Counted from the whole stretch's first letter, positions 5,432-11,065 are shown. The stretch: DNA of 63,795 nucleotides, filler included, from Vezdaea acicularis (GCA_026025075.1; 3 parts of 3 records of this genome joined end to end with filler, not necessarily neighbours in it), one strand, 5' to 3'. A program made the numbers and translations. Notes: generated by a model not told the origin, from the letters alone.

Positions 5432-6025
5432 GAGATCGGACAGTTTTCTCCCATATTAGCGGCATTGGCGAGGCGTATCTGCGTGTTAATTACGTTTGTG
5501 CTTTACAATTCTGCATGCAGAGGGCGTTGGGTGAATATTGAGAGGCGCCATCTCCATAGCATAAGAGACGCGTTATCGAAGTCTTCCACAAAGGCTGTAG
5601 CAGGGCTCAGGGGCTTAGAAGTACAAAGATTAAGTGGAGTATATGCTGGCTTGCAACATCACATAGGCATAATCAAAGGCATATTAACCGTCTTCTACTA
5701 TGTACTAACCCTTCTACTGTATACTGACCTGTCTCCTGAGAGGATTTGTGGATTTGATAGGGGGTAAAAGCTACAGGGACAACGTGTCAGAAATCTGGCA
5801 TGTGTCCCTGCGTGAAAGGCGAGTGTCGGTCACATTTTGACGACCCTTCTCATTATTGTGACGGGTGATGGTTTCAAGCCAAACCGTAAGACTATTTAGC
5901 CCATTAGTTCCGAATCCGGCCAATCACAATAAGGTCCCAACCCGAGGTTCAAACCACGCCCAACCAGCAACAACACCCCAACGCCGTCTCATATACACTC
6001 CAACCTTTTCCCGCCCTCTAAAATC

Positions 6026-6973
6026 ATGAGCGCATCAGTGTTCACATCCCTCTTCAAGCACTCATCCGCTACCGCCCCCGCCCCAACAACCACTCCCCAG
6101 CCCGCCACAATCCCATCGGCACCCCCACCACTCCCTCCAAATGTCCGCATAGCCCCCATAACCAACCAGACCCACCTCCACTCCTTCCGCCGCATCAACA
6201 GCCTCCTCCTCCCCATCCGCTACCCCGACGCCTTCTACACCAGCATCCTCACCGAGCCCGCCAGCGCGTCCCTCACGTACGTCGCGCTGCGGGATGATGC
6301 TCCCAGGCGCAAGCGCAAACGAGATGATACTAAAGAGGCAGATAAAGAGGACACGTCGAGGGAGAGAGGGCAAAGAGAGGAAAATGCAGATGGCCGGAAA
6401 GACGCGGCGGTAGAGGGAACGGGAGAGGAAGCGGCGGAGGGAAAGGTCATCGGCGGGATTCGTGCGAGGTTGGAACCGCATCTTTCTCCTATACCAGGCT
6501 TGCCGCTATCGATCAATTCTACAACAGAGCCTCTCAGCAGCAACGGCACGTCCACCACCTACCCTGATTCATCTAGCGACGGCGCCACCAACCGTCCACC
6601 CCCACCACCACTACAACAACAACGCCTCTACATCCAAACAATCTCCCTCCTCTCCCCCTACCGCTCCCTAGGAATCGGAACCGCCCTCCTCCAATCCATT
6701 GTCCAACCCGCTGTACGCGACCATGGGATCTCGTTGGTGTACGCGCATGTCTGGGAGGCGAACGTCGATGCGGTGGAGTGGTACCGCAAGAAGGGCTTTC
6801 AGGTCGGGGAGCTGGTCGAGGGGTATTATCGCAAACTGAGGCCCGGCGGGGCGAGAGTCGTGTGGAGAGAGGTGGGGATTGTGGAGAGATTGGAGGCGGA
6901 GGGAAAGGGAGGGATGTGGGAGGAGAGGGAGGGGAATGGGGAGGGAAGAGTCAAGGACGAGAAGGGGGGCTAG
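6026..6973 (+). CDS. GNAT N-acetyltransferase, Nat5/Naa50-like
   Basis: LLPIRYPDAFY, YIQTISLLSPYRSLGIGTALL (acetyl-CoA loop), YAHVWEANVDAVEWYRKKGF and YYRKL. Confidence 0.82.
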   Translation: MSASVFTSLFKHSSATAPAPTTTPQPATIPSAPPPLPPNVRIAPITNQTHLHSFRRINSLLLPIRYPDAFYTSILTEPASASLTYVALRDDAPRRKRKRDDTKEADKEDTSRERGQREENADGRKDAAVEGTGEEAAEGKVIGGIRARLEPHLSPIPGLPLSINSTTEPLSSNGTSTTYPDSSSDGATNRPPPPPLQQQRLYIQTISLLSPYRSLGIGTALLQSIVQPAVRDHGISLVYAHVWEANVDAVEWYRKKGFQVGELVEGYYRKLRPGGARVVWREVGIVERLEAEGKGGMWEEREGNGEGRVKDEKGG

Positions 6974-7233: not shown

Positions 7234-8986
7234 CTAGCCAGGAGACCGAACCCCTTTACCAGCTACAAGAGCTATCAATGCAGCACCAACTCCACTCCCG
7301 TCCTTCGCAATTCCAATTCTGATCCTTTTTTCGCCGACAGGACCTATCTCTGGGATATCTCTTAGGGCCTCGCGTATGTAATCCTCAAAGCCAGGATAGT
7401 ATTCGACCAACGAGCCATCGACACCGATGTCAATGACATCTTCCTCCGGTACGGTAGTCGCAGCAGCTTGCAGCTTCTGGGCTGTGTTCTTTGCAGCTTC
7501 GACCATATCGAGGTTCTTGAGGTTCTCGGCAATGGTGGCACTTGGCTTGGTTGGTGGCGAGGAGGTACGCTCAAGACGACCAGAGTTGATTACGATGGCG
7601 CCGATGGCGACAGCGCCAAGACGAGCGCTACGCTTTCCAATTGCTGCAACGATCTCTTTGACTGCTTGAGCGTCTTCTTCACTAGAAGCGTGGACGCCAA
7701 GGTCCTTCTCAAGAGTTTGACGAGAGACGCGGAGGCCAGCGCTAGTGTCCGCTTGTAGAATACTAAGGAAGCTCGTATCCAGCCCCCATTGTTTGTAGAG
7801 CGCAGAGTCTTCCGCGATTACCGTCGTCGAGTGGAGATCATTGCTTGCTGAGCTCTCGTCGGCAAATAAACGGACTTTGGGATTATTGACAAGGGAGACT
7901 AGTGCCCGGCGTAGGATCTCGCCCAAAAACATCCCCGAGACTCGCTTTTCGAACATTTGTATTCCAGGATTCACGCTCTCCTTGTCGAGCGCTTCATCGT
8001 ATTGGGTGTTCGGTAATACACTCATGGCATTATCGAATGAGCCCCATTCCGTATTGATTACCATCTCCCCTGTTGATTTATCATATTCTGCACCACCAGG
8101 CATCGAAGACATCTTCGTGACCTTGGAAAGATCTTCGACGTAAGCCCCGTTAGTCCCGGTACCGAAAATTGCCCCAAGCAGTGTTCCTGTCTTTCCTGGA
8201 GAGGTGTAGGACCGTGCCATTAACGTGCCTACTGTATCATTGACGAGCGCTGCCACTCTGACAGGGAGGTGTAGGGCGTCAATCTCCTGTTGTAGTAAAG
8301 CACATACATCTTTTCCAACCGCTTCATTGATGTCGAAGCCTTTGGTCCATCTAATAAGGTAGCCCTTATTGATACCAACTTGCTGAACTGGGAAACTGAA
8401 AGTAAAGCCTAGTTGAAAAATATCCTCATCTGACGTGGTGTCTCCCTCCAGTCTTCTTCTCTTGTGAGCCTCAAAATGGTCATTGTGATGGGTCTCTAGG
8501 AATAGCTGAATCTGCCTTGCCAGGAAACCAAATAGTTCATGCGCAGTCTTCGCTATCATAAGATCGCGTGGTATGGGGACTTTGGATTGTGTAAGTTTAA
8601 AGGTGGTATCTCCTTGTAGTTGTATCGAGCAAACACGGAAATTTGTTCCCCCAAGGTCGACAGCTAAGAACAGACCCTGTTATTTGATGAGTTAGGGCAT
8701 TTAGTGTTAGAGGGCATAGAGCTCTAACCTTTTCCGTACCGTTGGGCACTGCTGTTACGTATGTAGGTATTTGACTCATCATCTGCCCGGACTTCTGGAG
8801 ACCCTCATCTAGACACACGGGATATCAGCATCTAAATTACAGGCCGTTAAGGTGCACATCCTATTTGCACGTGAAATTGTGCTACTAACTCATTTGTTTT
8901 AGAAACTCCTTCACCCCTCTCACAACTTCTGAAGCTGGGTAGTCAAATTCAGCGGCTACCCGCTTAGCCTCTGCCAATAAAGACAT
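7234..8986 (-). CDS. GLK1: Glucokinase (hexokinase family); exons 8986-8890, 8808-8729, 8676-7234
   Basis: MSLLAEAKRVAAEFDY start, [70 protein letters not shown] and DGSGVGAAL. Confidence 0.93.
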
Positions 8987-10359
8987 ATCGGCTATTCCGC
9001 AGGTATCAGGAGTAGTATCAAAGAGGTTGAGGTTCGGGCATACAGCGGGTGGTTCTCGTGGGCCGAAAGCTGATTGTAATACAGGAGGATAGATAGCCCG
9101 AGAGCGGCCCAGAGAATCGGAGCGGATATATTGAACAACTAAGATTATCAGGAGCAATGCAATTGAAAGAAGTTGAATTGAGCGCCGGATGCTGTGGACA
9201 GGATCCGGAGGAGGGGCAGCTTTATACACTTTGCGCTCGGAAAGATCAGGAGATGCTGGAACCGACTGTAAATCAAAGATATGGACACGAAGAGAATTAC
9301 TAGGGCTCGAAGCGCGAGAGGTTTTCGGCGACACCGTTGCTGATTGAGAAGGCTGAGGCCGAGAATGGCAGGAGAAAGAGTATCAAGCCACTAATTGGAG
9401 TGGAGCATGCGAGAACCGTAACCAGCGATTCGCACAGCCCTCGGCGTTGACTTCGGCCCTACCGTCGGTACTTGCAGATGATTGCAACGTAGGTGGTCCG
9501 CAAGGTGCTCTTAAAACATAGGAGACGATAGGCTATTCGTGCTGATGCCCAAGCAATCAGGCATTGGAGGGAAAATACCGCCTGCAGGCCGATTCAAGGC
9601 AGACCACCTGCAAATGGAGGGGTTCGAGTGCGGGGCAATTCGTTCGAGGGTCCTTCGCTGTGTCTTCGGGAGGGTCGGCCAGTAGCGTGCGTCCTTGGAT
9701 ATTCTGAGCCGGTGGCGAACGCCGGCCAGATATGTGAGGTAAAATCTGCGAACATCACAATTGTTCTATGCGAATTTTTATCTCCTCATGATTGGTAAGT
9801 TTGTTCTAATTAAGTGAAGAGAATGATCCTTCAATACAAAAACATATGAAGTCCGTCACGTAGTAATCGAATCGTTAGCATCGGGCCTCGTGATGCTAGT
9901 AAACATGTCTCTGCTCCCCTGCAACCTTAGCTTTTGTAGTTCTCAGATAGACACCAATACGAACTTAGGGTTCTTCGTAATATGTAATCCAAATTCGCCT
10001 TCAATTGACAATTTGCTACAAGAACATTGATGCCACGTCGAAGTCCCTCCCTCTTGGGCTTAAAGTGAACGGAAACCTAGTGACCAGCCGATGGCAATTG
10101 CTTAGTGAAGAGCATGTCGATATTTTCTCAAAAAATAGAGAAATACCCTATATACCCAGAAGCCTTAGATTATGAATTTACTTGACTCTACAGCGCCTTA
10201 TCCCAAGACCATCTGGTCTATTATTTAGATAATCTCAACCCACCAATCACCAGTCGGAACCTTCGCTTAGTCATCTACGCTTCCCGGAGATTCTCGCGAG
10301 TAGCTTCAACATCGAACCAAGAAAACTTTAAGAGCGCCCACCTCCACTATCGTGCCAAA

Positions 10360-11065
10360 ATGGGCGCCAACGAGTCCAAACCACAGAGCTCAGGCAAGCA
10401 GCATGTTTTCGCCAGGTAATTGCACCCCATCCGCCTTTCCTAGCCCCATTGACCCACCACCCCTCCTCCAAACGGGACCGTCTGCTTACAACGCACGCTA
10501 CCACCAGCTCAACACCGGTTCACTTCTCTAAGGAGCTCGTCGACTCTCTGCAAGGCAGTGCTGAGGTACGTAACTCCTCACCACTTTAAAATTCCTCAAA
10601 TCTTCCAATTGACCCCTAGTCCAGACAGACGGCACCCGCCAAAAAACGCTCGAACTACACATCCAATCCCGCGTCGCGGACGAACTGAAGCGCCTCGCCG
10701 CGCGCGACGCCGAGCTGCTCAAATCGCTTGAAGACAAGATCTCTGCCGAAGAATCGCCCACCTCCATCAGTAGTAGCAGCAGCAACAGCGCGGAAGCCGG
10801 GAAAGACGCCCAAGAGGCGTCCGCCCGCGCGCGAGACCTCGGCAGGGAGAGCATCCAGCGCGATGTCGACAAGCTGAAGAAGAAGCTGCAGAGCCGCCGG
10901 AAGCTGGAGGGGTTGGATGAGGGGGTGGAGCGGGCGAAGGCCGAGCTGGTGGGGTGTTTGAGGGAGAATGAGAAGAGGCCGTTGGATTGTTGGAGGGAGG
11001 TTGGGGCGTTTAAGAGGGAGGTGGGGAGGCTGGAGAGGGAATTTGTGGATAGGGCGTTAGGGTAG
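10360..11065 (+). CDS. MIC19: MICOS subunit Mic19 (DUF1690); exons 10360-10415, 10508-10565, 10625-11065
   Basis: Myristoylation-type start MGANES, PVHFSKELVDSLQ, LELHIQSRVADELKRL and C-terminal CLRENEKRPLDCWREVGAFKREV. It is missing from the ORF track because of introns. Confidence 0.88.

Follow-up and report, generated by a model that had tools for sequence, protein, structure and literature searches.

This study concerns the glucokinase gene of Vezdaea acicularis (GCA_026025075.1) and the reading frame directly upstream of its start codon, which may encode a membrane-anchored form of the enzyme. The gene lies on the minus strand of the window, by which we mean the whole stretch of DNA analyzed (63,795 nucleotides (nt), filler included). 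Its predicted product matched the Pfam families PF00349 (Hexokinase_1, 195.9 bits) and PF03727 (Hexokinase_2, 255.1 bits) above the Pfam cut-offs with exon 3 alone. The enzyme shares ~70% identity with named glucokinases of Pezizomycotina, lichen-forming species among them, and 98% with protein P0108. The original prediction for this DNA, made from the sequence, had the gene and its frame right and placed the ATG one base off (8987-8985). It also described a stop-free and ATG-free frame of 132 codons upstream of the gene, an adjacent ACG and GTG within it, and a hydrophobic segment (9178-9125) preceded by two arginines. Re-reading of the minus strand bore these out: the 132 codons (9382-8987) contain zero stops and zero in-frame ATG back to a TGA, ACG and GTG are the earliest in-frame near-cognate codons after this TGA, and the segment is present. 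The features of the locus are listed in Table 1.

Table 1. Features in and around the glucokinase gene of V. acicularis; positions are those of the window.
Feature	Position	Strand	Remarks
Canonical glucokinase gene	7234..8986	-	Exons 8986-8890, 8808-8729 and 8676-7234; stop 7236-7234; 539 residues
Canonical ATG	8986-8984	-	G at -3
Linker between predicted anchor and enzyme	8987..9124	-	46 residues; Cys codons 9040-9038 and 9001-8999
Out-of-frame ATG in spacer	9018..9041	-	Weak context (T at -3, C at +4); 7-codon open reading frame closing 5' of main AUG
Predicted single transmembrane segment	9125..9181	-	19 uncharged residues; Kyte-Doolittle 19-mer mean 2.40
Putative extension head	9182..9331	-	~50 residues; net charge +4; 37% Ser/Thr/Pro; terminates in RR before hydrophobic segment
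Tandem near-cognate codons, proposed start of long isoform	9332..9337	-	ACG 9337-9335, GTG 9334-9332; codons -117 and -116 from AUG
In-frame TGA closing glucokinase frame upstream	9383..9385	-	
Mini upstream open reading frame	9391..9408	-	ATG, four codons and TAG; out of frame with the coding sequence; 71 nt 5' of ACG
Divergent neighbor	10358-11062	+	~1.37 kb from glucokinase AUG; Pfam DUF1690, 105 bits
Convergent neighbor 3' of glucokinase	5933-6973	+	GNAT-family acetyltransferase (Acetyltransf_1, 40 bits); long low-complexity insert

On the sense strand, pyrimidines make up 63% of the leader. When it was shuffled 20000 times with dinucleotides preserved, the glucokinase frame remained stop-free in 173 cases. 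At this rate (~1%) dozens of such cases are expected per genome; thus, chance alone is not negligible for a single window and the answer must come from other genomes. An extension-only profile built from 29 relatives scored 25.3 bits against frame 0 of the window, compared with 0.9 and -2.0 bits for the other two. Of 2000 shuffles that preserved composition, none scored as high (1998 of them returned a score, the highest being 11.9). Codon-usage log-odds were likewise coding-like in frame 0 alone (+0.173 per codon; -0.27 and -0.49 for the other two) and amounted to +0.215 per codon in the head. The extension itself matched no Pfam family. Judged from these comparisons and those given below, the open frame and its predicted hydrophobic segment are not a product of chance, and homologous extensions occur in relatives.

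A search at near length with the 165-residue open reading frame (ORF) formed by the extension and exon 1 returned four ORFs, three of which had an open leader and the same hydrophobic segment. A library of 1.84 billion representative proteins yielded 48 matches; the exon-1 motif was found in 46, and 30 of these representative ORFs also had the anchor, as we call the hydrophobic segment below. In addition, 51 fungal glucokinase loci (designated L) were fetched by two exon-1 motifs only, which avoids selection for open frames. The VKEF motif, ~24 codons into exon 1, served as the reference point in the 40 testable loci, i.e., those for which 200 or more codons of DNA upstream were available. The median stop-free run 5' of this motif was 166.5 codons in frame 0 versus 47 and 12 in the other frames, and runs of at least 100 codons were observed in 36 of 40 loci in frame 0, compared with 1 and 7 in the other two. 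Among 49 distinct sequences (48 loci and the window), an anchor, defined as a hydrophobic 17-mer averaging 2 or more on the Kyte-Doolittle scale, was located 57-114 codons 5' of the AUG in 34, and a QLLS start and a Q-F/Y end are shared across them. The first Cys of the linker (9040-9038 in the window) is near-invariant, being found as C107 in at least 90% of aligned sequences, and the linker alignment also shows clade-specific conserved motifs.

The loci without an anchor (L015, L020, L022, L023, L027, L036, L037, L043, L044, L046 and L048-L051) keep ~45-65 open in-frame codons and a conserved Cys-containing motif just 5' of the AUG. In L023, the stretch homologous to the anchor contains charged residues, which looks like a secondary loss. 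If well-studied moulds fall in this group, it would be explained why the anchor has been overlooked.

Nucleotide differences in the extension were counted in eight close pairs of loci, all of them relatives with the window outside, and four of them pairs of AUG-less loci. Differences at codon positions 1, 2 and 3 numbered 71, 55 and 170 (chi-square p = 8e-18). The same excess at the third position was observed in AUG-less pairs (4, 2 and 31 in L029/L030; 10, 8 and 25 in L011/L017; 26, 13 and 38 in L001/L003). In DNA alignments of the informative pairs (L001/L003, L029/L030, L024/L026, L039/L042 and L011/L017), insertions and deletions 5' of the proposed start were frequent and of all lengths. 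3' of it, either none occurred or their lengths were divisible by three; two pairs of 1-nt changes, compensating within each pair, were the exceptions. L012/L018, near-identical throughout, and L008/L010, too diverged for gap-free alignment, added little. On these patterns, the putative extension is under purifying selection as a protein in the relatives, across many Pezizomycotina. The original prediction had proposed to compare the leaders of related fungi for frame, transmembrane segment and synonymous bias, and had named stops or a missing hydrophobic stretch in these leaders as evidence to the contrary. The frame (36/40), the anchor (34/49) and the third-position excess were all found in relatives; 14 loci lack the anchor.

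An in-frame AUG 38-50 codons 5' of the anchor was present in 13 loci only, namely the Pleosporales-like group and L013. In the 21 AUG-less loci that have the anchor, we searched for CTG, TTG, GTG or ACG with a purine at -3 and G at +4, located 30-65 codons 5' of the anchor. Such a codon was found in frame 0 in 19 of the 21, in frame +1 in none and in frame +2 in three. It was followed by GCN (Ala) in 18 of the 21 loci, and only 6 of 111 other in-frame CTG, TTG, GTG or ACG codons had the same context. The four nearest distinct relatives have GCAGCA-TTG-GCG in common at the point where their conservation starts, and other lineages have CTG-GCN or AUG at this site. At the aligned site the window reads TCAGCA-ACG-GTG-TCG, and its ACG-GTG lines up with the TTG of L001-L005. 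The ACG has G at both -3 and +4, and the GTG has A at -3 and T at +4. Thus, the two codons singled out originally do fall at a conserved start position, at which AUG-less relatives have TTG or CTG in strong context. A hairpin 3' of the proposed initiation codon was looked for and not detected, the mean z being -0.05 for 19 AUG-less loci and +0.13 for 11 loci with an AUG.

The leaders are also depleted of ATG. In 42 loci, the 300 nt 5' of the canonical AUG contained 7 ATGs, whereas 74.1 were expected by dinucleotide shuffles, and in the 32 loci with a control region 6 ATGs were found there versus 195 in the region 600-900 nt upstream. The depletion sets in 60-180 nt 5' of the proposed start. 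The stretch from the anchor to the AUG is free of ATG in all frames in 47 of the 49 distinct sequences, the exceptions being the window and L019. Position -3 of the canonical AUG is A in 29 of the 30 loci compared; in the AUG clade, the upstream AUG has C at this position in 4 loci, G in 4 and A in 3. Such a layout, with a start in poor context first, one in good context second and no AUG in between, is the one that leaky scanning requires.

A peak of ATGs 60-90 nt upstream was considered as a candidate upstream mini-exon or upstream ORF. It was rejected, as it was traced to a motif of the AUG clade and no conserved ATG was found in AUG-less loci. Nine loci (L024, L026, L028, L034 and L038-L042) share a conserved block with TTGGCATGCA (palindromic core GCATGC) ~67-114 nt 5' of the AUG of the extension. 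This block lies just 5' of the onset of ATG depletion and could serve as a promoter element or indicate where the long mRNA begins. The peptide of the mini upstream ORF of the window is not kept in relatives, and this ORF would be relevant only if the transcript begins further upstream.

Several ORFs of relatives, taken from public assemblies (P0162, P0175, P0176, P0186, P0188, P0197, P0100 and P0099) span the extension and continue through exons 1-3 in spliced form across both intron sites. Since genomic loci close the frame in intron 1, uninterrupted ORFs must stem from spliced RNA; on this continuity, we infer that they are RNA-derived. Thus, the anchor region would be part of the mature mRNA of these relatives, some of which belong to the window's own group. 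The first intron of the window gene is absent in several lineages, in which exon 1 reads straight into the next conserved motif (L007, L008, L010, L013, L019, L029-L032, L039, L045, L049 and L051).

Together, the conserved coding extension, the pattern of start sites and the spliced contigs of relatives, all computed directly, argue for the isoform of the original prediction, which is the best-supported reading. In V. acicularis, a near-cognate start at ACG/GTG would give a predicted transmembrane long form of glucokinase beside the AUG-started enzyme, by leaky scanning; we give this reading a probability of about 0.7. The 5' leader of the glucokinase mRNA would double as coding sequence. A minority of scanning ribosomes would initiate at one of the two near-cognate codons and produce a long isoform of ~655 residues. 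This isoform would consist, in order, of a basic, Ser/Thr/Pro-rich head, one transmembrane segment, the Cys-containing linker and the whole enzyme. The other ribosomes would scan the nearly AUG-free spacer to the canonical AUG and produce the soluble 539-residue enzyme. Thus, one gene would supply both a membrane-anchored and a cytosolic glucokinase. The arrangement may be ancestral to a large part of Pezizomycotina, with CUG or UUG in strong context serving as the start in most lineages and a weak-context AUG in the Pleosporales-like group.

Several observations weigh against this interpretation. The extension of the window is only ~32-35% identical to the nearest loci and is the most divergent of its group. 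Its codon-usage signal is modest, as 2.1% of random non-training pieces equal its score. Its ACG-GTG-Ser departs from the common CTG/TTG-Ala pattern, and two loci, L012 and L018, have no strict-context near-cognate codon (a CTG with A at +4 is found instead). The canonical AUG of the window has G rather than A at -3, and the out-of-frame ATG at 9041, the sole ATG from the proposed start to the canonical AUG, interrupts the spacer. In addition, a TATAAA (9226-9221) located between the proposed start and the anchor might mark the origin of transcripts that begin too late to include the proposed start codon. The anchor is absent from 14 loci (four of them truncated at contig ends), and is thus dispensable in some lineages. 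Finally, the loci are phylogenetically related and their counts overstate independence. From sequence groupings, made without a tree, the AUG-less loci represent roughly 12-13 independent lineages.

Four other explanations were considered. The extension might be translated from an AUG in a spliced-on upstream exon, or from a start further upstream in another form of the transcript. In the window and L001-L004, the conserved start region is immediately preceded by a CAG, and the window has an ATG 71 nt upstream; judged by eye, however, splicing this ATG to either CAG in the vicinity would leave it out of frame. AUG-less loci have no conserved upstream ATG or mini-exon (zero ATG in the 160 nt upstream in 12 of 19), and P0175 and P0176, two of the spliced contigs, run colinear with genomic DNA both across the start region and 5' of it. 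A frame-specific near-cognate codon in strong context also requires no upstream exon, and we regard this explanation as quite improbable. Alternatively, the extension could be a relic, i.e., coding in an AUG-bearing ancestor and now an untranslated leader that has not yet decayed. The lack of an AUG in the extension of the window, its divergence, the loss of the anchor in some lineages and the ~1% chance of an open frame would all fit a relic. However, the lack of an upstream AUG is common among the lineages, and pairs of AUG-less loci differ mostly at third positions and have no indels other than in-frame ones. In the window, too, all 132 codons are still open and the anchor and the conserved Cys are intact; its codon usage resembles that of coding sequence solely in the glucokinase frame, and two near-cognate codons occupy the conserved site. 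It is therefore improbable that the extension is a mere remnant.

The possibility that the region is a non-coding leader or promoter, with conservation at the level of DNA or RNA, was also considered. A pyrimidine-rich 5' region (63% here) might by itself yield an open frame, as 173 of the 20000 shuffles did, and hydrophobicity, because T-rich codons specify Leu, Ile, Phe and Val; AUG depletion is expected in any 5' leader. However, this cannot easily be reconciled with openness specific to one frame in 36 of 40 loci, third-position bias at p = 8e-18, in-frame indels and a profile match in a single frame. Moreover, Rfam gave no match at E up to 1 in window positions 8800-10400, and there is no excess RNA structure 3' of the start. 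We consider a non-coding origin very unlikely. A final explanation retains the anchored form and invokes two promoters, with a long transcript for this form and a short transcript that starts inside the extension, e.g., 3' of the TATAAA, for the soluble form only. Alternative isoforms in Cryptococcus are reported to come sometimes from alternative transcription starts (PMC7049704). Against this, TATAAA was found in just two of the scanned loci, the window and L033, and was rejected as a conserved internal promoter; scarcity of ATG in all frames of the spacer and the contrast of weak and strong contexts are required by leaky scanning, but not by two promoters. Two promoters as the sole switch are unlikely, though still to be reckoned with. 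They can coexist with leaky scanning, and would alter only how the ratio of the two forms is set.

Under the near-cognate reading, the predicted long forms have a common architecture. In relatives, the heads are 29-66 residues long, rich in Ser, Thr and Pro (6-21% proline), with a net charge of +2 to +8; the head of the window has 51 residues if GTG is the start. Basic residues directly precede an uncharged span of 19-42 residues, the median Kyte-Doolittle 19-mer value of the anchors is 2.37 and the linkers have 25-89 residues. In one clade (L011, L014, L017, L021, L029 and L030), the predicted N-terminus after the CTG is Ala, an Arg-rich run and Ser-Leu-Pro. The heads of the same clade have RRxS-like sites that resemble basophilic kinase motifs or the start of a presequence.

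According to the positive-inside rule, the more positive flank of a membrane segment stays on the side of synthesis. Among 30 cases, positive charge was greater on the N-terminal flank in 22, equal on both flanks in 6 and greater on the C-terminal flank in 2. These flank charges favor a head on the side of synthesis and a translocated enzyme. The original suggestion of a catalytic domain in a lumen, on account of positive charges upstream, fits these 22 relatives; the window itself is a tie (2 versus 2). A translocated enzyme would be either a type II protein of the endoplasmic reticulum (ER) or secretory pathway, or, in mitochondria, an inner-membrane stop-transfer protein exposed to the intermembrane space. 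Bipartite mitochondrial presequences have a positive N-terminal part and a basic cluster, followed by ~19 or more uncharged residues. A simple examination of the heads for amphipathic helices and composition gave no basis for choosing between mitochondrial and ER targeting. In plants, anchored hexokinases are predicted to be secretory, yet are located on the outer mitochondrial membrane (PMC3045890), which cautions against reliance on such rules for the fungal topology. We commit here only to describing the long form as membrane-anchored, as predicted. As a rough estimate, a mitochondrial membrane is a little less than an even bet, the ER or secretory pathway is a tentative candidate and some other membrane is unlikely. 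It is doubtful, if possible, that the catalytic domain lies across the membrane (in the ER/secretory lumen or the intermembrane space) with the head in the cytosol or matrix, and that this arrangement is conserved in much of Pezizomycotina with a CUG, UUG, ACG or GUG start kept across several classes.

Structural resources contributed little. Relatives in the PDB cover the long form P0054 only from residue 102 on. An AlphaFold2 model of P0054 from 33 aligned sequences was too poor (mean predicted local distance difference test score 46, predicted template modeling score 0.43) and was not used; it contained only a helix at 39-51 (the anchor) and a low-confidence unstructured linker. In the ESM Atlas, no usable look-alike of the extension of P0054 was found.

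To our knowledge, glucokinase in filamentous fungi has been treated as a soluble cytosolic enzyme. The full-text literature searched, with subscription journals outside it, contained no description of a membrane-anchored or non-AUG-extended fungal glucokinase. The original prediction claimed that no precedent was known for fungal Glk1, and we likewise found no paper; the long form is, however, already present among automatic NCBI models. Models of 616-763 residues, annotated as GLK1, hexokinase or phosphotransferase (P0052-P0095, P0194 and P0204), have a homologous head, anchor and linker. They come from Pleosporales (Alternaria, Pyrenophora, Parastagonospora and others), Mytilinidiales (Lophium and Mytilinidion) and Seirophora, a lichen fungus of Teloschistales. 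These are unreviewed predictions that begin at an upstream AUG, which is absent from the window. Extension-bearing models scored 109-175 bits with the profile, compared with ~51-62 for the canonical-Met models listed. Among the best 110 matches, 43 begin at the canonical Met and 10 bear the extension, and models of the nearer relatives of the window mostly begin at the canonical Met. Thus, glucokinase gene models are inconsistent between lineages.

Several published systems resemble the proposed arrangement. In Ustilago maydis, 6-phosphogluconate dehydrogenase (Pgd1) has a tandem AGG-AUU start and a cryptic peroxisomal targeting signal type 2 (PTS2) in its 5' untranslated region (UTR) (PMC7214817), and in yeast GRS1 starts at UUG and ALA1 at ACG (PMC5666671). 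The likeness consists of an in-frame, AUG-less targeting element in an annotated 5' UTR, by which one gene gives a cytosolic and an organelle-bound version of an enzyme of sugar metabolism or housekeeping; tandem near-cognate codons are common to Pgd1 and the window. In contrast to these cases, the enzyme here is glucokinase, and the extension is a predicted transmembrane anchor with a ~50-residue head and a ~46-residue linker instead of a PTS2 or a soluble presequence. Neither glucokinase nor hexokinase is mentioned in the main texts of PMC7214817, PMC6582344 and PMC7049704, or in one supplement of PMC7049704.

In Pezizomycotina, cpc-1 has a conserved N-terminal extension with near-cognate initiation, for which there is evidence from in vitro translation, and A at -3 and G at +4 are named as the most important context nucleotides (PMC5487733). 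The glucokinase extension occurs in the same subphylum and is similarly conserved at the amino-acid level, with conserved near-cognate codons in good context. However, cpc-1 is a transcription factor whose extension has no membrane segment, and the case for it includes in vitro translation, that for the glucokinase extension sequence comparison. Dual localization in Cryptococcus and Neurospora involves a weak AUG, a targeting sequence, a strong in-frame AUG and leaky scanning (PMC7049704). The AUG-bearing glucokinase loci share this design (weak upstream AUG, AUG-free spacer and A at -3 of the downstream AUG). The window and most lineages differ from it in having a predicted non-AUG start, and in having a membrane anchor instead of a plain mitochondrial presequence.

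The analogy drawn originally was with plant type B hexokinases. The anchor of plant hexokinases is at the very N-terminus, whereas the fungal anchor follows a charged head of 29-66 residues and thus does not occupy the extreme N-terminal position that characterizes type B. Plant type B and type D hexokinases have N-terminal anchors and are found on the outer mitochondrial membrane, and Physcomitrella PpHxk7 is produced with and without its anchor by alternative splicing (PMC3045890). The likeness is a functional one: an enzyme of the hexokinase family, a single N-terminal hydrophobic anchor, and anchored and soluble forms from one gene. The choice of isoform is made by splicing in PpHxk7 and would be made by the start codon in the fungi. 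Taken together with the fungal examples, the glucokinase extension is best explained as a known mechanism, retargeting by a non-AUG extension, here applied to a central enzyme and widely conserved.

With regard to the neighboring genes, the divergent one belongs to DUF1690, a family that presumably contains a fungal mitochondrial cristae-organizing subunit. Its product opens with Met-Gly, a possible start for N-myristoylation.

If the proposed isoform is real, much of Pezizomycotina, including lichen fungi and major plant-associated groups, makes an anchored glucokinase from the same mRNA as the soluble enzyme. This would be a deeply conserved natural case of initiation at CUG or UUG. The choice of non-AUG starts has been linked to stress and nutrient signals (PMC5666671 and PMC5487733). 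The ratio of the two isoforms would be set by start-codon choice; sugar phosphorylation, and possibly glucose sensing, would thereby acquire a compartmental dimension in these fungi.

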